Shown one piece after another: positions 611 to 57,590 of a DNA stretch of 58,386 nucleotides. Under the pieces are notes generated by a model. That model searched no databases. It was not told where the DNA came from and worked only from the letters and a program-made list of their open reading frames with translations. The stretch spans positions 1 to 58,386 of the forward strand of contig LCKO01000010.1 in NCBI GenBank assembly GCA_001001485.1. The letters are read 5' to 3'. Source of the DNA: Candidatus Collierbacteria bacterium GW2011_GWB2_45_17 (GTDB lineage Bacteria > Patescibacteriota > Microgenomatia > UBA1400 > MFAQ01). Both the position numbers and the translations under genes were made by a program. How positions within the stretch are numbered: position 1 is the stretch's first letter; every line of letters begins with the position of its first letter.

Positions 611-631
611 GGAGTAAGTGCAGATCTCCCG

Positions 632-654
632 CCTGCGAGGACAGTCCTCGCAGG
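632..654. repeat. REP-B palindrome copy
   Basis: Perfect 23-nt palindrome CCTGCGAGGACAGTCCTCGCAGG (11-bp arms, 1-nt centre). Confidence 0.9.
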
Positions 655-660
655 GGGCGG

Positions 661-684
661 TACTTCAAGGAGACTCCTTTAAGT
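661..684. repeat. REP-D palindrome copy
   Basis: TACTTCAAGGAGACTCCTTTAAGT, an imperfect palindrome. Related copies at 2190-2213 and 42199-42220. Confidence 0.7.
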
Positions 685-702
685 TTAAATTGTCAGTCTT
701 TT

Positions 703-818
703 TCCTGTCCGGTGATTTGTGCGACTTGGAACCACCTCTTCCCATTTCGAACAGAGAAGTGAAACAGGTCAGCGTCGATGATAGTGATTGGGCAACTGAT
801 TGCGCCTGCGAGGACAGT
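703..818 (+). rRNA. rrf: 5S ribosomal RNA (3' boundary uncertain)
   Basis: Contains the bacterial 5S signature blocks CCCATTTCGAACAGAGAAGTGAAAC (cf. CCCATGCCGAACTCAGAAGTGAAAC) and GTCGATGATAGTG (cf. GCCGATGGTAGTG). Helix II GACTTG/CAGGTC pairs, and 5' CTGTCC (705-710) pairs with GGACAG (812-817). Helix I is only about 6 bp because the 3' end runs into a REP-B copy. Confidence 0.65.
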
Positions 819-827
819 CCTCGCAGG
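805..827. repeat. REP-B palindrome copy overlapping the 3' end of 5S rRNA
   Basis: Perfect CCTGCGAGGACAGTCCTCGCAGG. Its left arm supplies the GGACAG that closes 5S helix I. Confidence 0.9.
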
Positions 828-888
828 AGGTTCTTGAAGGTTGTCATCTTCGCGAATGCGGGGATCCATTTTTATTCGGAACTAATTT

Positions 889-933
889 GTATAGATTCCG
901 GGTCAAGGCCTGCCTACCGGCAGGCAGGGATGT
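889..933 (+). repeat. G-type hairpin element
   Basis: TGTATAGATTCCGGGTC..GGCCTGCCTACCGGCAGGCAGGGATG. It has the TATAGATTCC 5' end shared with copies at 8794 and 57906, and an internal hairpin. Confidence 0.5.
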
Positions 934-993
934 GTACCAAATGGGATATTGACTTGACAAATAGTTAAGCTTTATGTATAGTGTATATTACAT

Positions 994-4782: not shown

Positions 4783-4805
4783 CCTGCAGGGCCAGGCCCT
4801 GCAGG
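4783..4805. repeat. REP-A palindrome copy
   Basis: Perfect CCTGCAGGGCCAGGCCCTGCAGG, starting directly after the TGA stop of the methyltransferase. Confidence 0.9.
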
Positions 4806-8833: not shown

Positions 8834-11800
8834 ATGAAAACAAAAATAACACAACTTTCGGTACCGGACATGCACTGTGAAGCCTGCCCAAAATTAATTA
8901 CCATGAATCTTAAGGAACTCAAAGAGGTCAAGGAGGTTGAGGCTGATTTGGAAACAAAAATGGTGACGGTGACTCATGCCGAAGGCCTAACAAAGGAAGC
9001 CATCATCGACAATATTAAAGAGTCTGGATATACGGCAGAGGTGATTGATGGAGTGAGATTTACCCGCAAGGGGTATCCAGGAGAGCCACAGTCGCTTGGG
9101 CGACTTCGCAATGACGAAGAGGTAGTTGGAGAAGAGTCAAAAAAAAAATCTGAACCAGACTCCCAAGTAGCGTACCTGGAAATATCGGGAATGCACTGCA
9201 GTAGCTGTGCCGGAATAATCGAGAAAACCCTCATGAAGACTAGCGGGGTATCTGAGGCGAATGTTAATTTTGCTACCAGTAAAGCCAGAATAAAGTTTGA
9301 GACGAAACTCACCAACCTGGGGGGGCTGGTGGCGGCTGTGAAGTCCACCGGTTACGGCGCCGAAATTCCATCCGAGACAAACTCCAAGTCCGAAACCGAA
9401 AAAAGAGCCGTCGAGATAGACTTTTGGTTTACAAAATTTATAGCAGGATTGGTGCTGAGTATACCAATGTTGTTATTTATGGTTTATGACTTTGTACCCA
9501 ACATGCCTTGGGCCAAAGTAATAATGCCAATCTCCGGCTTGATTTCTCTAGTGCTCGCCACCCCAGTGCAGTTTTGGGTAGGAAAAAACTTTATTCTGGG
9601 AGCGATCTCGGCTTTCAAAATGAAGACATTCAGTATGGATTCCTTGATTGCCATTGGAACGCTCACAGCTTATACCTACAGTGTCTTTGAACTTCTGAAA
9701 TATTTTGTAGAGACTGGATCGGCTATTGGTTTGAATGGGATGAAGATAGGCAATCTTTATTTTGAAGTAGCGTCACTTCTGATTACCTTCGTAGCTCTAG
9801 GAAAATGGTTGGAAGCCAAAGCCAAGGGAAAAACCTCTCAAGCGATCGAAAAGCTAGTAGGCTTGGCTCCAAAGATGGCCCGAGTAATGAGAAATGGCAC
9901 CCCAACTGACCTGCCTGTGGAGCAAGTGGTGGTGGGAGACATCGTGGTCGTTCGGCCCGGAGAGAGAATTCCGGTGGATGGAGTAATTATTTCCGGTTCC
10001 AGCTCTGTCGATGAGTCGGCGCTCACGGGAGAGAGTATTCCGATAGAGAAAACTATCGGAGCTAAAGTGTTTACGGCGACTATAAATAAGACGGGTAGTT
10101 TTGAATTTAAAGTGCAAAAAGTGGGCGAGGACACGGTGCTTTCTCAAATAGTGAAGCTGATTGAAGATGCTCAGGGAACTAAAGCCCCAATCCAGGGCTT
10201 TGCCGACAAAATTTCTTCGGTTTTTGTACCGCTGGTGATTTTAATGGCTATCGCCACCTTTCTGATTTGGTATTTCGTCCTCGGAGCGCCGTTTGAATTC
10301 GCGATTTTAGCCTTTGTTTCGGTAATTGTGATTGCTTGTCCGTGTGCTTTGGGTCTTGCGACTCCCACAGCGATTATGGTGGCCACGGGTAAAGGGGCAG
10401 AGCAGGGAATCTTGATTAAAGGCGGTGAACCGCTGGAAACGGCTTGTAAGATTGATACCATTATTTTTGACAAGACGGGGACACTCACCAAAGGCCAGCC
10501 GGAGGTGACTGACCTGATTAATTACTCTGGTAAGTCGGAACAGGAAGTTTTGATCGTGCTGTATGCTTTGGAATCTAAGTCCGAACATCCGTTGGCGGAG
10601 GCCATTGTCGAGTACTGTAAAAGTAGAATTTCGTCTGTCGATATGCAGACCCCGACCACCGATTTTAGCGCCATTCCGGGTCACGGGGTGGAAGCCAAGA
10701 TTAACGGACACACTTACTATGTGGGTAACCGCCGTTTGATGGAGCAGAAAAAGATTCACTCTTACTCCTTTATGGATTTGGAAAGATTGGAAGAAGATGG
10801 TAAAACAGCCATGCTGATTGCCTCTGCCGAACAAGTATTGGGAATAGTGGCGGTCGCCGACCAAGTAAAAGAGACCACAGTAGAAGTGGTTAAGAAATTG
10901 CAGAAAATGGGTATCGAAGTTTATATGATCACCGGGGACAACCGACGAACGGCCAATGCCATCGCCAAGCAAATTGGCATCACTAATGTTTTGGCTGAAG
11001 TCTTACCTCAAAATAAAGCCGAAGAAGTTAAAAAACTCCAAGAGCAAGGAAATATTGTGGCTATGGTAGGGGATGGGATTAATGATTCGCCGGCTTTGGT
11101 CCAGTCTGACCTCGGTATTGTGATGGCGTCCGGCGCCGACGTAGCGCTGGAGTCCGGAAGTATCATCATTATGAATAATGACTTGGATGGAGTCATCACC
11201 GCCATCAAACTGAGTATGGAAACGGTTGGAAAGATTAAGCAAAATATGTTTTTTGCGCTTTTTTATAACGTTCTCGGTATTCCGGTGGCGGCGCGAGTTT
11301 TCGTGTCTGCCGGTTTGGTACTTAAGCCGGAACTGGCCGGTCTGGCCATGGCGCTGTCTTCGGTTTCGGTCGTAAGTAACTCGCTTCTCCTTAAAGGATT
11401 TAACCCTAAGAAGTTTAATCTCATTTCCCGTTTGGCGCCGATCGTGATGACGGTTGGGTTCTTGCTTATTTTTTGGCAATTTGCAGTCATCTCTTCCAAA
11501 GAAAACTTGGGTGTGGTAACGACTTATGTCCAAAAGGATCCGGGTCTTGCAACTCAACTAAATTGGCTTATAACCAAGAATGAATCCAAGGTGACCATAA
11601 CCGAAGAAGGTTTTGTAAAACTGTTTCTAAAGACTGAGAGGATCACCGTGCCGCTGATTTTGGCTGAAGGAAAACCGGAAGCCGAGGGGACCGTGTCGGG
11701 CATGATAATTGGCAGTAAGGAGGCAGAGATGATGCGTGAAGAGAAATTGTTTTCCAATATTGGAGATGAAATAGAAAACTTCTTCGGAGTGCCCAAGATA

Positions 11801-12241: not shown

Positions 12242-12264
12242 CCTGCAGGGCCAGGCCCTGCAGG
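12242..12264. repeat. REP-A palindrome copy (left flank of RAYT-1)
   Basis: Perfect CCTGCAGGGCCAGGCCCTGCAGG. Confidence 0.9.
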
Positions 12265-12295: not shown

Positions 12296-12970
12296 ATGCC
12301 ACAAAAGAATAGTCGTAAAGAATATGGTGCCGGCGGGTATTACCATATCTTTAATCGAGGAGTAGAGAAGAGGAATATTTTTCTAGATGAACAAGATTAC
12401 AAAGTTTTTCTTGGCTATATGAAATTTTATCTCGAGATGCCTAGCCTGCAGGGCCAGGCCCTGCAGGCGGTGTCGCCATCAAAGATTCTCAAAAATTACC
12501 ATGACCAGATTGAGTTGCTTGCTTATTGTTTGATGCCAAATCATTTTCACTTTTTGATAAAACAATCGACCGATCGAGGTATCGCAGAATTTATGCAGTC
12601 TTTGGTGCTGAAGTACGTGATGTATTTTAATAAGAAATATAAACGAGTGGGGAGTTTGTTTCAAAGCCGATATAAGACAGTTCTAGTTGAAAATGAAAAT
12701 CAGTTTGTTTATATAACCAAATATATTCATCGGAATCCAATTGATATTTTACCTGCAGGGCCAGGCCCTGCAGGTCTGGAGGAGTATAAATATTCCAGTT
12801 ATGGAAATTACCTGGGATTGTTCCGGCAGGATTGGGTGAAGGCGGAAGAGATACTTTTTAACTTTTCAAAGAAAAATCATAGAAACACCTACCGATCTTT
12901 TGTGGAAGACTCGAGAGACACGGAAGACATCAAGAAAGTGTATCGTGAGATGATTGACCTGGATGATTAG
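12296..12970 (+). CDS. REP-associated tyrosine transposase (RAYT, Y1/HUH IS200-like transposase family), paralog 1
   Basis: 224 aa. YHIFNRGVEKRNIF N-terminus, HUH motif in MPNHFHFLIKQ, catalytic-Tyr region YITKYIHRNP. Flanked by REP-A on both sides and carrying two in-frame internal REP-A copies. Confidence 0.85.
   Translation: MPQKNSRKEYGAGGYYHIFNRGVEKRNIFLDEQDYKVFLGYMKFYLEMPSLQGQALQAVSPSKILKNYHDQIELLAYCLMPNHFHFLIKQSTDRGIAEFMQSLVLKYVMYFNKKYKRVGSLFQSRYKTVLVENENQFVYITKYIHRNPIDILPAGPGPAGLEEYKYSSYGNYLGLFRQDWVKAEEILFNFSKKNHRNTYRSFVEDSRDTEDIKKVYREMIDLDD
12445..12467. repeat. REP-A copy inside the RAYT-1 CDS
   Basis: Perfect palindrome, translated SLQGQALQAV. Confidence 0.9.
12752..12774. repeat. 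REP-A copy inside the RAYT-1 CDS
   Basis: Perfect palindrome, translated LPAGPGPAGL. Confidence 0.9.
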
Positions 12971-12979
12971 ACGCCTTTG

Positions 12980-13002
12980 CCTGCAGGGCCAGGCCCTGCA
13001 GG
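12980..13002. repeat. REP-A palindrome copy (right flank of RAYT-1)
   Basis: Perfect CCTGCAGGGCCAGGCCCTGCAGG, 10 nt after the RAYT-1 stop. Confidence 0.9.
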
Positions 13003-17185: not shown

Positions 17186-17208
17186 CCTGCAGGGCCAGGC
17201 CCTGCAGG
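17186..17208. repeat. REP-A palindrome copy
   Basis: Perfect CCTGCAGGGCCAGGCCCTGCAGG, in the intergenic region. Confidence 0.9.
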
Positions 17209-17941: not shown

Positions 17942-19354
17942 TTACGTCAGCTTGATGGAGCGGATGGAGGCGTGGGAGAGGGGGGAGAAAACGATGGTGT
18001 AGCCGAGGGATTTGGCTTCTTTGAGCATTTTATCGGTGAAGCCGACTTTTCTGATTTCGCCCAGAAGACCGAGCTCGCCGAAGCAGATGGAGTTTTCCGG
18101 CAAGGGTTTGTCTTTGACCGAGGAGACGATGGCTAGAGCGATGCCTAGGTCGGCACCCGGGTCTTTGACCTCCAGGCCGCCAGTGACGTTCACAAAAACG
18201 TCTTTGGTGGCCAGGCTCAGATTTAGGTGCTTGGTGAGGATGGCGCAGATAAGCTGGAGACGGTTTCCCGAGATGCCTTTGGCGATGCGGCGGGGGATGG
18301 GGAGGGGTGAGGCGACCACCAATGCTTGGATCTCGACTGTGAGGGGACGAGTGCCTTCCATGATCATGGTCAAACAGGAGCCTGGAGCATTTTTGACCCG
18401 TCCTTCAAGCAAAATGGCACCCGGGTCTTTGACCTCGTTGAGGCCGCCGCCATCCATGCGGAAGATGCCGGTTTCGTCTGTCGGGCCAAAGCGGTTTTTG
18501 ACGGTACGCAGAAGTCTAAGAAGATGTTGGCGGTCGCCTGAAAGCTCCAGAACAGTGTCCACCATGTGCTCCAGCATTTTGGGGCCGGCGATGTCTCCGT
18601 CCTTCGTCACGTGCCCCACAATGATCAAGGGAACGGAGTGTTCTTTGGCGGCCTGAATGAGAAAGCTGGCACTGTCGCGGATCTGGGAGGGCGAGCCTGG
18701 GGTGGTGGGGTTCGTGACAGTCGAGACGGACTGGATGGAGTCGACAATACATATTAGATCACAGCTCTCAGATTTCAGATCTCGGTTACTAATTGTTGGT
18801 TTAAGGGCGTCAATAATATTTTCCACGCAGGAGGTGTTGAGGAGCTGGATATGATCGGCCTGCGAGGACAGTCCTTGCAGGCGGGTGATGCGGGAGGCTA
18901 CTTGAGCCGGATTTTCCTCGGAACAGACGTATAAAACCCCTCCGGCCTGCTGGCCACCTCCCCTTGACAGGGGAGGTTGAAGCGATAGTGCGAGCTGGGT
19001 GAGAAGGGTGGATTTGCCGATGCCTGGCTGGCCGGCCAGAAGATAGACGCCGCCTTTGGTGAGGCCGGGACCCAGGACACGGTCGAACTCACCGATGCCG
19101 GTAGAAAAGGTGTAGCCGGTTTGGGAAGAAAGAGCTGTTTTGACCGTAAAACTTTCGGCTGGTTTGAGACTAACTTTCTGGCCGGTTTTGGTTCTGGCGG
19201 TTTTGAGGAAGGGAGCGGTCTCGACGAGCGTATTCCACTCGTGGCAAGCAGGGCATTGACCGGCCCACTTGGGCTCTATTGTAGAGCATTCTGCTTGGCT
19301 TGACTTTTTGAGTGTTATGGGGTATAATGCCGGCAGTCTTGTACGTTCGTCCAT
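17942..19354 (-). CDS. radA: DNA repair protein RadA/Sms carrying two in-frame repeat insertions
   Basis: 470 aa. Zinc-ribbon remnant KWAGQCPACHEWNTL, Walker A GQPGIGKSTL, RadA KNRFG motif (TVKNRFGPT), Lon-like C-terminal domain. Confidence 0.9.
   Translation of the reverse strand: MDERTRLPALYPITLKKSSQAECSTIEPKWAGQCPACHEWNTLVETAPFLKTARTKTGQKVSLKPAESFTVKTALSSQTGYTFSTGIGEFDRVLGPGLTKGGVYLLAGQPGIGKSTLLTQLALSLQPPLSRGGGQQAGGVLYVCSEENPAQVASRITRLQGLSSQADHIQLLNTSCVENIIDALKPTISNRDLKSESCDLICIVDSIQSVSTVTNPTTPGSPSQIRDSASFLIQAAKEHSVPLIIVGHVTKDGDIAGPKMLEHMVDTVLELSGDRQHLLRLLRTVKNRFGPTDETGIFRMDGGGLNEVKDPGAILLEGRVKNAPGSCLTMIMEGTRPLTVEIQALVVASPLPIPRRIAKGISGNRLQLICAILTKHLNLSLATKDVFVNVTGGLEVKDPGADLGIALAIVSSVKDKPLPENSICFGELGLLGEIRKVGFTDKMLKEAKSLGYTIVFSPLSHASIRSIKLT
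18858..18880. repeat. REP-B copy inside the radA CDS
   Basis: CCTGCGAGGACAGTCCTTGCAGG (one G:T mismatch in the stem), translated RLQGLSSQAD. Confidence 0.85.
18957..18976. repeat. REP-C palindrome inside the radA CDS
   Basis: CCTCCCCT-TGAC-AGGGGAGG, translated within LSLQPPLSRGGGQQ. Other copies at 24709, 42254 and 42295. Confidence 0.8.
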
Positions 19355-26546: not shown

Positions 26547-27227
26547 TTAGCATTCGTAATCGATAGCGGTTAAATAAATGGGAGTGATGTCTTCTGGTTC
26601 CTCAACAAATCTTTGGTATGAACTATTTTGTTTGCCGCCAAAGTTAACAATAATTTCTTCTGGACGAACCCATTTTTGGTGAAAATGACCAAGATAATTT
26701 GGATAAGAAGAATATCTATATTCAGACAACTTGTGGGGAGACTCCTTGTAATAAGATGAGAGACCTAGGGGGTTTCGATGGATGTATTTTGATAAGTGTA
26801 TCCATTGATTTTCAGCCTCAATTCTAACGGCCTTATATCTGTCTTGGAACAAGTGTCCGACCCGTTTATATCTTGTGTTGAAGTATCTGACATATTTGGT
26901 GGAAAGTGAACTCATAAAGTTGCTCATGGAAAAGTCATCGTTTTGTTTTATAAAAAGATGAAAGTGGTTGGGCATAAGACAGTAGGCAATTAAGGTGATC
27001 GATTCTGAATAATTACGAAGTATTTTTGAAGGAGACGTTGGTCTTACCTGCGAGGACAGTCCTCGCAGGTCTATTGAATTTGGGTTAGTGAGGTAGAACT
27101 TCAGGTAGGAGAGGAAGGTTTTGTAGTCTTGTTCGTCTAGAAAAATAAGTCGCTTCTCTACTCCGCGATTGTAAATATGATAATAAGCTCCAGACTCATA
27201 TTCCTTAATAGCATTTTTTGAGGGCAT
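26547..27227 (-). CDS. REP-associated tyrosine transposase (RAYT), paralog 2
   Basis: 226 aa, strongly similar to RAYT-1 across the N-terminal and HUH-motif blocks compared here (YHIYNRGVEKRLIFLDEQDYKTF, MPNHFHLFIKQ, LSKYIHRNP). One in-frame REP-B inside and one REP-B 37 nt upstream of its start. Confidence 0.85.
   Translation of the reverse strand: MPSKNAIKEYESGAYYHIYNRGVEKRLIFLDEQDYKTFLSYLKFYLTNPNSIDLRGLSSQVRPTSPSKILRNYSESITLIAYCLMPNHFHLFIKQNDDFSMSNFMSSLSTKYVRYFNTRYKRVGHLFQDRYKAVRIEAENQWIHLSKYIHRNPLGLSSYYKESPHKLSEYRYSSYPNYLGHFHQKWVRPEEIIVNFGGKQNSSYQRFVEEPEDITPIYLTAIDYEC
27047..27069. repeat. REP-B copy inside the RAYT-2 CDS
   Basis: Perfect CCTGCGAGGACAGTCCTCGCAGG, translated DLRGLSSQVR. 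Confidence 0.9.
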
Positions 27228-27263
27228 TAATTAATAATAGTCCCTAGAAGGGTATATTATTCG

Positions 27264-27286
27264 CCTGCGAGGACAGTCCTCGCAGG
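27264..27286. repeat. REP-B palindrome copy (flank of RAYT-2)
   Basis: Perfect CCTGCGAGGACAGTCCTCGCAGG. Confidence 0.9.
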
Positions 27287-38225: not shown

Positions 38226-38248
38226 CCTGCAAGGCCAGGCCTTGCAGG
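38226..38248. repeat. REP-A variant copy
   Basis: CCTGCAAGGCCAGGCCTTGCAGG: a G-to-A change in the left arm is matched by C-to-T in the right arm, so the palindrome is preserved. Confidence 0.9.
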
Positions 38249-41367: not shown

Positions 41368-42225
41368 ATGGATTTTAAGCAGATACTCATGGCTACCTCA
41401 CTTTATGACTGGTTGGGGAAGCGAACTTATGCTCAATCGGGGGAGGATGTGATCGCGTGGGGGGAGCTAAAAGAACTCAAGGAATCAAGAACTCAAGAAA
41501 TCAAGGTACCTGCAGGGCCAGGCCTTGCAGATTGGGGACCTCTAAGGCCTGGCCCTAGGGGGTCAAAAACGGGGTTTTATGTGGATGTGGGGGCGTATCA
41601 TCCGAAACTATTTTCGAATACGTATTTGTTCTACAAAAAAGGCTGGCGGGGCATTTGTATTGAACCGAATCCGAGAATGAAAAAGTTGTTTCTGATAGCC
41701 AGGCCGAGGGATGTGTTTGTGAGTGTGGGAGTGGGGGAAAATCAAGAACTCAAGAACTCAAGGAATCAAGGAATCAAGACAAAAAGAGTTTTGGAGTATT
41801 TTGAGTTTGAGGATGGGGCGGTGAATACTTTTTCGGCGGAGCAAGCCAGGAAAAATCAGGAGGAAGCAGGCCGGAAACTGATAGGCAGAAGAAGGATACC
41901 GGTTCTGCCGCTCAAAACTATTTTGGATAAATATTTGCCTAAAGGCCAAAAAATTGATCTGCTGTCGGTGGACGCGGAGGGGATGGATTTGGAGGTTTTG
42001 AGATCGAATGACTGGAAAAAGTATCGGCCGGAGATGATTATTGCGGAGGATTTGACCGACAGGGCCAGGCCTTATAGGGGATTTAATCCTTCAAGGCCTG
42101 GCCCTGCGGGTGGTGGTAGTGGAGGGGTGGTGAGATTTTTGGACAGTGTTGGATATAGATTGGTGGCGAAGACGCCGTATTCGGTGATATTTAGAGTCCA
42201 ACAAGGAGTCTCCTTGAAGGTATAA
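41368..42225 (+). CDS. FkbM-family methyltransferase riddled with repeat insertions
   Basis: 285 aa. YAQSGEDVI...FYVDVGAYHP..FSNTY.FYKKGWRGICIEPNP and DLLSVDAEGMDLEVL are FkbM/Methyltransf_21-like. It contains two minisatellite tracts and two REP-A dimers in frame. Confidence 0.7.
   Translation: MDFKQILMATSLYDWLGKRTYAQSGEDVIAWGELKELKESRTQEIKVPAGPGLADWGPLRPGPRGSKTGFYVDVGAYHPKLFSNTYLFYKKGWRGICIEPNPRMKKLFLIARPRDVFVSVGVGENQELKNSRNQGIKTKRVLEYFEFEDGAVNTFSAEQARKNQEEAGRKLIGRRRIPVLPLKTILDKYLPKGQKIDLLSVDAEGMDLEVLRSNDWKKYRPEMIIAEDLTDRARPYRGFNPSRPGPAGGGSGGVVRFLDSVGYRLVAKTPYSVIFRVQQGVSLKV
41465..41505 (+). repeat. AACTCAAGG-type tandem repeat tract (inside the FkbM CDS)
   Basis: GAGCTAAAAGAACTCAAGGAATCAAGAACTCAAGAAATCAAG, translated ELKELKESRTQEIK. 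Confidence 0.7.
41509..41561. repeat. REP-A dimer (two units separated by a short spacer)
   Basis: CCTGCAGGGCCAGGCCTTGCAGA-ttgggga-CCTCTAAGGCCTGGCCCTAGGGG. Confidence 0.8.
41738..41782 (+). repeat. AACTCAAGG-type tandem repeat tract (inside the FkbM CDS)
   Basis: AAAATCAAGAACTCAAGAACTCAAGGAATCAAGGAATCAAGACAAAA, translated NQELKNSRNQGIKTK. Confidence 0.7.
42056..42110. repeat. REP-A dimer (degenerate)
   Basis: CCGACAGGGCCAGGCCTTATAGG..CCTTCAAGGCCTGGCCCTGCGGG, inside the FkbM CDS. Confidence 0.7.
42199..42220. repeat. REP-D palindrome copy
   Basis: CAACAAGGAGTCTCCTTGAAGG at the 3' end of the FkbM CDS. Confidence 0.65.
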
Positions 42226-43507: not shown

Positions 43508-45221
<1,714 letters not shown>

Positions 45222-57056: not shown

Positions 57057-57590
57057 TTAGGTAGGTAACATAGGTGGAAAGTAGCTGTTCGCTAAGAATG
57101 TTGACCAGATTTTGGTCGGTAAAGGGGGTTTGGTTGGCAGTCCAGAGAAAGAAGTGATGAAGATCCGAAAGGTAGTTTTTGACGGTATTTTGGCGGAGGA
57201 GAGGGAAGCGGCGGGTGACACACCCTGTAGGGCCAGGCCTTGAGGATTGGTGCCCTTTAAGGCCTGGCCCTGGAGAGGGGCGAGGCCGAACTGGGCGTGC
57301 AGGAAAGTAGAGAAGCGGCGGATGGAGGCGAGGCGCCTGGCAGTGGTGTTTGCCGGAGTGAAGGAGGCTTTTTGAGCTTGAAGATAGGGATCGAGGTATT
57401 GATTGAGATTTTGGAAGATGTCTTTGGTGGTGAGGGTGAGGCCCGCCGCCGCCGAAGGCTCTGGCGAGGTAAAGGAGAGGAAGTGGCGGAGATCGGAGAG
57501 GTAGTTTTTGATAGAGACGGAAGAAAGACCGGCCTGCTGGAGAAAGGCTTGGAAGAATTTTAACAGTTCTACTTGGTCGGGCAGGTACAT
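57057..57590 (-). CDS. giant surface protein, N-terminal cytoplasmic segment with tyrosine-recombinase core-binding (SAM-like) repeat
   Basis: 177-aa ORF. FLQQAGLSSVSIKNYLSDLRHFLSF ... TTARRLASIRRFSTFL resembles the phage-integrase N-terminal SAM-like domain. The last roughly 60 aa are out-of-frame after the REP-A dimer. Confidence 0.6.
   Translation of the reverse strand: MYLPDQVELLKFFQAFLQQAGLSSVSIKNYLSDLRHFLSFTSPEPSAAAGLTLTTKDIFQNLNQYLDPYLQAQKASFTPANTTARRLASIRRFSTFLHAQFGLAPLQGQALKGTNPQGLALQGVSPAASLSSAKIPSKTTFRIFITSFSGLPTKPPLPTKIWSTFLANSYFPPMLPT
57224..57275. repeat. REP-A dimer with a 1-nt gap in one arm (site of frame break)
   Basis: CCTGTAGGGCCAGGCCTTG-AGG ... CCCTTTAAGGCCTGGCCCTGGAG. 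The arm GGCCTTGAGG lacks the C expected from palindrome symmetry (GGCCTTGCAGG). Confidence 0.75.

Follow-up and report, generated by a model that had tools for sequence, protein, structure and literature searches.

Tyrosine transposases associated with repetitive extragenic palindromic (REP) sequences, the RAYTs, have been described from E. coli (PMC3479197, PMC8266576, PMC6006769) and, as several paralogs, from Pseudomonas fluorescens SBW25 and Stenotrophomonas (PMC2817692, PMC3116915, PMC3337134, PMC5581495). It is already established that RAYT paralogs have REP classes of their own and that the trees of enzyme and repeat are congruent, and a GT[AG]G tetranucleotide head has been described at one REP foot (PMC2817692, PMC6006769). 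REPs lying in frame within repair and RNA-related genes have also been described (PMC3733652), and the copying of REPs and REPINs, their uniformity and the co-evolution of RAYT and repeat have been stated as open questions (PMC3337134, PMC8266576). The present analysis concerns a stretch of 58,386 nt from Candidatus Collierbacteria bacterium GW2011_GWB2_45_17 (contig LCKO01000010.1, positions 1 to 58,386), hereafter the window, which harbors two RAYT genes, RAYT-1 and RAYT-2. The system is a REPtron of the known kind with one new feature, namely that cognate repeats reside in two loops, predicted to be permissive, of the open reading frame (ORF) of the enzyme itself. The literature searched, with most subscription journals outside its scope, yielded no account of a RAYT ORF that contains REPs; the internal repeats, as a trait of a RAYT family of the Candidate Phyla Radiation (CPR), apparently have not been described previously.

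With the E. coli enzyme (TnpA_REP/RAYT or YafM; 4ER8), the window RAYTs share the Y1 HUH fold, the HUH and tyrosine motifs, a gene at a single locus, flanking cognate REP hairpins and a hairpin family dispersed in the genome. However, the sequence identity is ~14%, and the window family possesses a conserved C-terminal extension of ~70 aa. The E. coli REPs bear the asymmetric GT[AG]G head, whereas those of the window are near-perfect symmetric 23-mers with CCTGC/GCAGG feet, and in the window family REPs are present at two fixed loops of the RAYT ORF. Similar to SBW25 and Stenotrophomonas, the window has more than one RAYT paralog, each with its own repeat class, co-divergence of enzyme and repeat, compensatory palindrome changes, vertical inheritance and a low copy number, and inverted doublets (REPIN-like) occur here too. 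In those genomes the repeats lie outside genes, at the flanks of the RAYT, whereas 13 of the 20 copies in the window lie in ORFs, including those of the RAYTs; the RAYT-linked copies are singlets instead of REPIN doublets, and the host belongs to the CPR/Patescibacteria.

The palindromic elements (RPE) of Rickettsia and the intragenic GTAG/CGTC REPs (PMC3733652) resemble the window repeats in being in-frame palindromes in functional genes, often DNA-repair or RNA-related. They are presumed to sit in tolerant loops, which the copies in radA and obg of the window fit. Among the many protein targets in that work, the own transposase was not found mentioned as a host, and neither family-wide conserved, co-evolving sites nor in-place switching of variants were described. 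The TnpA proteins of the IS200/IS605 family (IS608, ISDra2) have the same catalytic fold and act strand-specifically on subterminal hairpins of single-stranded DNA, in a manner linked to the lagging-strand template (PMC6006769); such strand-specific action would agree with the uniform orientation of the repeats in the G-skewed window. Unlike these elements, the window RAYTs are not multi-copy mobile units but two copies, 58% identical, at fixed syntenic loci; they are without tnpB, and their hairpins, which are short and dispersed, do not depend on the gene.

Two RAYT genes and their cognate repeats

A tblastn search of the window with the RAYT-2 protein returned RAYT-1 as the single paralog, with an identity of 56–58% (58% in pairwise protein alignment). 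The Pfam domain Y1_Tnp (PF01797) was recognized in both proteins, with 49 bits in RAYT-2 and 44 bits in RAYT-1 (cutoff 23). The NCBIfam RAYT equivalog NF047646 scored 43 bits, under its cutoff of 80, which indicates a distant subfamily and not the E. coli-type equivalog. The HUH motif of RAYT-2 is H88-F-H90 and the catalytic tyrosine is Y148 in K-Y148-IHRNP; H88, H90 and Y148 were invariant in a 51-sequence family alignment, and both HFH and KYIHRNP were present in the two window proteins when aligned pairwise. Tertiary structure prediction of RAYT-2 using AlphaFold2 on the 51-sequence alignment gave a model with a mean predicted local distance difference test (pLDDT) score of 82. The top PDB fold match of this model in Foldseek was 4ER8 (E = 2e-5), a structure of the E. 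coli RAYT in complex with a REP hairpin, followed by the ISDra2, IS200 and IS608 transposases; a PDB sequence search with the family profile gave marginal ISDra2 matches only, and 4ER8 was reached via the fold search. By domain, motifs and fold, RAYT-1 and RAYT-2 are RAYT-like Y1/HUH enzymes. An earlier note on this DNA, made from the sequence alone, had called RAYT-2 a second RAYT paralog with an exact REP inside and another upstream, and was right on each count.

The repeat of RAYT-2, REP-B, is the 23-nt palindrome CCTGCGAGGACAGTCCTCGCAGG, with 10 strand-matches in the window against 0 expected (100 shuffles). That of RAYT-1, REP-A, is CCTGCAGGGCCAGGCCCTGCAGG; four copies are found in and around the gene, beginning at 12242, 12445, 12752 and 12980, and others at 4783 and 17186, while a variant of it, REP-A' (CCTGCAAGGCCAGGCCTTGCAGG), occurs at 38226 and 43801. 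The difference in the inner stem between REP-A and REP-B, which had been noticed in the earlier note, was found to comprise three base pairs (6/18, 7/17 and 10/14), all compensatory. The window repeats share the feet CCT..AGG, have a variable inner stem and contain no stops in any of the six frames. They end in GCAGG/CCTGC on both sides in place of a GT[AG]G head; as GTAGG was found in the relatives L002, L004 and L037, the head is a variant that is symmetric in the window repeats. In and around RAYT-1 only REP-A is present, and in and around RAYT-2 only REP-B; one repeat class per RAYT was also observed in L005, L014 and L054, each a locus with two RAYT genes.

The 20 family copies of the 58-kb window were obtained in a sensitive census, the seven intergenic ones falling in its ~14% non-coding share. 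The ORF-resident copies lie in obg (three), radA, an FkbM-type methyltransferase gene (three), an integrase-like ORF (two), a sortase-domain ORF and both RAYTs. Three inverted doublets (42056/42088, 44290/44321 and 57224/57254) may correspond to REPINs, and the perfect RAYT-linked copies are all singlets. None of the hairpins was assigned to a known RNA family in an Rfam scan.

Repeats at two sites of the RAYT reading frame

The internal REP-A and REP-B of the two paralogs align in one gap-flanked stretch between FYL and SPSKIL (site 1) and are read in the identical phase (C/CTG/C.., giving L-Q/R-G-x-x-x-Q). The homology of the two positions had been proposed in the earlier note, and the alignment bears it out, as it does the internal peptides quoted there. 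Several copies had escaped that note: a second internal REP-A (12752-12774; site 2), the REP-A downstream of RAYT-1 (12980-13002), REP-B at 632, 805 and 18859, and a relic at 26730-26753 in site 2 of RAYT-2. The left arm and loop of the relic are like those of an older, L083-type variant, and its right arm has decayed (−2.6 kcal/mol). The reading phase of site 2 differs by lineage, being phase 0 in the RAYT-1 lineage and phase 1 in that of RAYT-2. The low-confidence stretches of the RAYT-2 model coincide with both repeat sites. Residues 47–70 lie between helix 32–46 and strand 77–85, and residues 152–170 follow the tyrosine helix 139–151, with pLDDT values of 58–67 and 63–71 at the two sites as against ~90 or higher in the core. 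A low pLDDT denotes uncertainty and is not proof of a loop; going by the model, sites 1 and 2 are probably flexible, permissive surface loops tolerating 7–9 extra residues.

The occurrence of the sites was followed in homologs obtained by word-seeded search. The 120 best homologs of RAYT-2 (55–96% identity) came from CPR/Microgenomates sources, several of them named Collierbacteria, and almost all showed L-x-G-x-S-x-Q/K at site 1; taxon labels of metagenome-assembled genomes (MAGs), such as 'uncultured Gammaproteobacteria', are unreliable. Among the 113 best homologs of RAYT-1 (56–95% identity), both internal sites were occupied in all 113. The RAYT sites vary in length between the aligned homologs. 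A wider survey covered 80 related loci of species-representative genomes, nearly all Patescibacteria MAGs, with 89 RAYT-like genes; together with the two window genes, this made 91 genes for the tally of hairpins. A hairpin was present within 90 nt of the ORF in 79 of the 91, and 35 internal hairpins matched the gene's own flanking hairpin. In RAYT-2 numbering, 15 of these fell at residues 53–71, 16 at residues 158–167 and one at 184, and three were C-terminal. The 46 internal hairpins without a flank match, used as a background control, were scattered and mostly AT-rich. The hairpin sequences were wholly different between lineages. A large subfamily with a helical insert has no site 1 hairpin and often a site 2 hairpin, and in a few RAYT-1-lineage homologs site 1 has decayed with the ORF intact. 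These comparisons show the internal cognate hairpin to be characteristic of a large family of CPR RAYTs.

A peptide pattern conserved across ~230 homologs could also mean that selection acts on the protein (L-x-G-x-S-x-Q/K at site 1, PxGPGPxG at site 2) and that the palindromic DNA is incidental. The manner of variation speaks otherwise. Residues 2 and 6 of the site 1 heptad co-vary as reverse-complement codons (R/S, Q/L, P/R, S/R) and not by physicochemical class; of the 45 distinct heptads, 35 had a reverse-complement-compatible pair, where chance would give 17 and none of 2000 shuffles exceeded 27. In the RAYT-1 homologs, the peptides of sites 1 and 2 vary together like translations of a single 23-mer in two phases, as in the pairs LQGQALQ/PAGPGPAG, LQGQALK/PSRPGLEG and LQGQTLQ/PARSDLAG. 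A single DNA word can encode both sites in 37 of 59 distinct pairs (10.6 expected; maximum of 20 in 1000 shuffles). At the DNA level, 96.9% of the stem cells of 13 variants were paired, with compensatory change in four of 10 pairs. Both sides had changed in 17 cells, where 5.4 were expected, and none of 500 shuffles reached 17. In addition, distant relatives with unrelated peptides still carry a flank-matching hairpin at these positions, the same DNA word also occurs between genes, and the model confidence at the sites is low. Peptide-level conservation as the explanation was rejected in view of the codon-complement covariation, and we consider this alternative scarcely credible. The conserved element is, as far as sequences tell, the hairpin and not the peptide.

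In the RAYT homolog alignments, the stretch following site 1 (12468..12490 in RAYT-1, 27020..27046 in RAYT-2) contains PSK after heptads ending in Q and PSR after those ending in K. Since CCTTCAAGG read in phase 0 gives P-S-R, this stretch may be a relic of a second, adjacent repeat arm.

Concerted change of repeat variants and its explanation

Orthologs of RAYT-2 were found in the loci L081 (84% identity), L083 (72%) and L085 (67%; Collierbacteria, GCA_001000665), all with glycosyltransferases and a ~1250-aa protein as common neighbors and radA 8–9 kb away. The ortholog of RAYT-1 in L088 (91% identity) is likewise placed beside the same P-type ATPase and BlaI/M56 genes. The repeats at the orthologous loci occupy the same four positions (upstream, site 1, site 2 and downstream), with one lineage-specific variant across the copies of a gene, and the variants differ by compensatory pairs. 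The variant is CCTTCAAGGAG.CTCCTTGAAGG in L083 and CCTTCAAGGAC.GTCCTTGAAGG in L085, both of which carry their own variant at site 2 as well, and in L081 it is REP-B as in the window. L088 contains four perfect REP-A copies though the adjoining intergenic DNA has diverged. The upstream copy lies at a constant distance from a conserved spacer in all RAYT-2 orthologs. Site 1 of RAYT-2 is nucleotide-identical in L081, and site 2, which in the window is the decayed older type, is an intact REP-B there.

RAYT-1 and RAYT-2 are anciently separated and vertically inherited at fixed loci, and each would be the hub of its own REPtron. The co-divergence of enzyme and repeat put forward in the earlier note is well supported by these orthologs (67–91% identity) with lineage-specific variants at the same positions and compensatory differences, and orthologs lacking the internal palindrome, named there as evidence to the contrary, were looked for: nearly all orthologs have it. 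The internal repeats are ancient, near-universal in the close clades and evolving in concert with the flanking copies. As a separate observation, RAYT-2 and its L081 ortholog are nearly identical over the N-terminal ~135 residues and far more diverged in the C-terminal part, which suggests that the gene is a mosaic or recombinant, its breakpoint lying close to site 2.

A change of variant at a fixed position was also seen in radA, whose repeat site could be compared in three lineages. L085 has no repeat there, only a short native mini-palindrome, CCTTT..AAAGG; L081 has a degenerate old-type copy; and the window copy is one mismatch from REP-B. Between the window and L081, 6 of 23 positions differ, five of them toward REP-B, whereas the upstream flank next to the repeat has one difference in 42 positions. 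The L081 site 2 and the radA cases indicate that resident copies are replaced or corrected in place. The native radA sequence of L085, CGCCTTTCCTCAAAGGAG, is already half-repeat-like, which hints that a REP-like native sequence can become a REP by conversion and not by insertion. The window RadA (17942..19354), with 470 aa, is also 33 aa longer than its close ortholog in L081 (437 aa); its N-terminus differs, and apart from the REP-coded stretch it contains the additional internal segments PPLSRGGGQQAGG and PTISNRDL.

In obg, both repeat sites are insertions that the solved Obg proteins lack. Site 1 was occupied only in relatives of at least 95% identity (among 120 Obg homologs), and site 2 in ~17 of the top 60 homologs, as singlets or doublets. 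Compared with L087 (98.5% nucleotide identity), the window obg has an extra 24-nt block of eight codons with a second, inverted repeat. This block turns a singlet into an inverted doublet, most of the other differences from L087 cluster at the repeat, and a unit of 24 nt could enter any ORF without shifting its frame. The obg and radA sites are patchier and more degenerate than the copies in the RAYT loops. Repeat sites can thus persist for a time in housekeeping genes, but they are far less widespread there than in the RAYT genes.

The gain or loss of that 24-nt obg repeat between 98.5%-identical genes is one of the observations that would fit recurrent, independent RAYT-mediated insertion, with survivors only in the two permissive loops, old copies decaying and giving way to fresh insertions, and no homogenization. 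Others are the indel-rich site 1 loops with partial arm duplications (DLQ-DLQGLSLK in L085, SSQASSQA in P0080) and the site 2 phase, which is 0 in the RAYT-1 lineage and 1 in that of RAYT-2. Within each lineage, however, phase and exact position are constant (113 and ~118 homologs), which independent insertions in three phases and at many positions would not give. Moreover, radA and the L081 site 2 switch variant without moving, and the upstream copy keeps its distance from the conserved spacer in all orthologs. We regard this explanation as improbable.

The orientation of the repeats was considered in relation to the DNA strand. The GC skew was +0.12 to +0.32 in every 4-kb block of the window regardless of gene orientation, and in each of the 17 copies that are singlets or first members of a doublet the centre A lies on the plus, G-rich strand, whatever the strand of the gene; the three centre-T copies are second members of doublets. 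Orientation was uniform in the strongly skewed loci (the window, L048 and L038, and mostly in L001), which suggests that it is linked to the replication strand. With respect to the genes, the centre codon of distinct heptads in the homologs had a T centre in 17 cases and an A centre in 22 (L/V vs Q/D/E/Y), and orientation alternates in L085. This split shows that the hairpin is not oriented relative to the gene sense strand, and an orientation that is not conserved fits a process on a DNA strand better than an RNA element that depends on its loop.

The reading we prefer, to which we give an even chance, is a concerted, in-place renewal of resident hairpins that is probably driven by the RAYT and biased in cis. 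It starts from what could be observed directly, i.e., positions, identities, covariation, family-wide conservation, synteny and concerted switching, along with the location of the loops in the model. The internal copies would be ordinary members of each RAYT's own repeat family that happen to reside in two loops, and the copies near a RAYT gene would be renewed in concert, giving the identity with the flanking copies. For this, the RAYT would cut single-stranded DNA at the feet of the hairpin, by preference in the vicinity of its own gene, and a resident hairpin would be replaced or repaired with the currently active variant through a hypothetical in-place cassette exchange or conversion in which position and reading phase are preserved. 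Renewal would be more reliable closer to the enzyme, leaving the RAYT loops almost always with a perfect cognate copy. In this gene-dense CPR lineage the repeats are resident both within and between ORFs. In this scheme we infer the RAYT as the catalyst, the cis bias and the exchange chemistry, as well as any effect on RAYT expression.

Several points weigh against the renewal of resident copies by the RAYT. Concerted change could also come from gene conversion or from strong independent selection on each copy. Site 1 is occupied in ~96% of close RAYT homologs vs ~28% for obg, and given this gap a pure by-product model needs an assumed cis bias. The radA copy adds two codons relative to L085 and aligns gap-free to solved RadA; as it is nearly length-neutral, simple insertion is not the whole story. 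In L017, L018 and L019 (RAYT at ~10000..10680 of each locus), in-frame site 1 hairpins with 12–13-bp stems are present with no second copy (≤2 mismatches) within 20 kb, and here the internal hairpin could be maintained for its own sake. The word-seeded homolog search could slightly favor sequences sharing repeat-coded words. Finally, orientation is mixed in other related loci, including L085, so that the replication-strand rule is only suggestive.

Some of these observations would also fit internal hairpins that are selected cis-elements, serving in autoregulation, with the enzyme limiting its expression by recognizing its hairpin in the mRNA or single-stranded DNA of the gene, as a translation throttle (−22 to −24 kcal/mol) or as a master or donor copy that cannot be lost and ties the repeat family to its enzyme. 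Almost all close homologs of either paralog carry the hairpin at the same site and in the same phase, and occupancy in the housekeeping control obg is much lower. The internal copies are perfect (0 mismatches) where many dispersed ones are degenerate, and they always belong to the gene's own family, even with two families in one genome; the strong internal hairpins of L017, L018 and L019 stand without nearby copies. Yet the hairpins have no conserved orientation with respect to the sense strand, so that the loop in the RNA is not the same from gene to gene. Decay with the ORF left intact has affected site 2 of RAYT-2 and site 1 of a few RAYT-1-lineage homologs, the large subfamily with the helical insert has no site 1 hairpin, and the same repeats are present in loops of unrelated proteins. 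In scans around both RAYT genes, no promoter, ribosome-binding site or terminator relationship of the hairpins was detected, and the promoter and terminator signals were nothing above shuffle expectation on the relevant strands. On balance, selection of the hairpins as cis-elements is possible but doubtful, and a dedicated regulatory role of the internal hairpin would go beyond what the comparison of sequences offers. The proposal of the earlier note that the internal copies reflect autoregulation or self-recognition and not random insertion therefore holds in part: the positions are strongly non-random, whereas the step to autoregulation found no specific support, given the repeats in obg and radA, the unconserved orientation, the decayed sites and the subfamily without site 1.

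An extension of the renewal reading, which we hold to be unlikely, would make the RAYT a site-preserving 'cassette editor' that overwrites repeats in place genome-wide, with the self-recognized copies in its own ORF as unlosable masters and/or autoregulatory sites. If true, a domesticated transposase would be overwriting short peptide-coding hairpins even within essential genes and where the 5S rRNA gene ends.

Whichever process is at work, a conserved ORF with repeat copies pinned at alignable positions within it, and at a constant spacing from its start codon, amounts to a natural experiment. With hundreds of lineages that switch variant jointly, concerted evolution, donor and recipient relations and specificity become measurable from sequence, and the CPR RAYT family gives a handle on repeat copying and uniformity. 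Two paralogs and two hairpins three base pairs apart are simple material for biochemical tests. The window also shows that protein-coding sequence can be the main residence of a repeat family in gene-dense CPR genomes, and such protein-resident repeats matter for annotation, protein-family alignments and metagenome assembly around repeats.

The 5S rRNA locus and other copies in the window

The coordinates of the two genes and of the repeats are given in Table 1.

Table 1. RAYT genes and repeat copies in the 58,386-nt window
Feature	Position	Strand	Description
RAYT-1 gene	12296..12970	plus	224 aa, paralog of RAYT-2
RAYT-2 gene	26547..27227	minus	226 aa, Y1/HUH tyrosine transposase-like protein
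REP-A, upstream of RAYT-1	12242..12264		31 nt before ATG
REP-A, site 1 of RAYT-1	12445..12467		SLQGQALQA, homologous to the internal REP-B of RAYT-2
REP-A, site 2 of RAYT-1	12752..12774		PAGPGPAG, phase 0, just past the catalytic-Tyr helix, −23.7 kcal/mol
REP-A, downstream of RAYT-1	12980..13002		9 nt past stop
REP-B, upstream of RAYT-2	27264..27286		36 nt before ATG; position occupied in all three orthologs
REP-B, site 1 of RAYT-2	27047..27069		codons 53–61, DLRGLSSQV, perfect 10-bp stem, −22.4 kcal/mol
Decayed REP relic, site 2 of RAYT-2	26730..26753	minus	sense TATTACAAGGAGTCTCCCCACAAG, peptide YYKESPHK
REP-B, perfect	632..654		intergenic, ~54 nt upstream of 5S rRNA
REP-B, perfect	805..827		replaces last ~22 nt of 5S rRNA gene
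REP-A, perfect	4783..4805		directly after stop codon of methyltransferase gene
REP-A, perfect	17186..17208		intergenic
REP-B, one mismatch	18859..18881		in frame in radA, RLQGLSSQA
REP-A'	38226..38248		extreme 5' end of sortase-domain ORF; may lie upstream of true start
Three diverged REP-A-like copies	41509..42110		FkbM-type methyltransferase gene; 41509 and inverted doublet 42056/42088
REP-A'	43801..43823		in frame, obg site 1
Inverted REP-A-like doublet	44290..44343		in frame, obg site 2
Diverged inverted doublet	57224..57276		in ORF 57057..57590, phage-integrase N-terminal SAM-like domain

An Rfam search located a 5S rRNA gene at 708..829 on the plus strand, with 49.7 bits against a gathering score of 38. 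The normal 5S end, GATTGCGAAAGTAGATCATCGCCGGGCA, followed by a terminator, was found in 54 related loci, one of them on the contig of a RAYT-2 ortholog. In the window, the 5S gene breaks off at GATTGCG, and its upstream flank, which holds REP copies, differs as well. The 5S gene may have been truncated or remodelled, with REPs as its bounds, REPs may have mediated a rearrangement, or two sequences may have been joined at the repeat during assembly. Weak tblastn matches at 618..968 had raised the possibility of a third, degraded RAYT here. It was rejected, since the frames are broken except for a 116-aa ORF without a Pfam match and the region is the 5S rRNA locus with its REP copies.

Between the REP-B at 632 and the 5S gene, a degenerate repeat at 664..684 (CTTCAAGGAGACTCCTTTAAG) represents an older variant as in L083 and L004, which indicates that old and new variants coexist in this genome. 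Downstream of the 5S locus, at 909..928, another hairpin, CCTGCCTACCGGCAGGCAGG, has a 7-bp stem and a 6-nt loop; it possesses the CCTGC/GCAGG feet, yet falls outside the 23-mer family.

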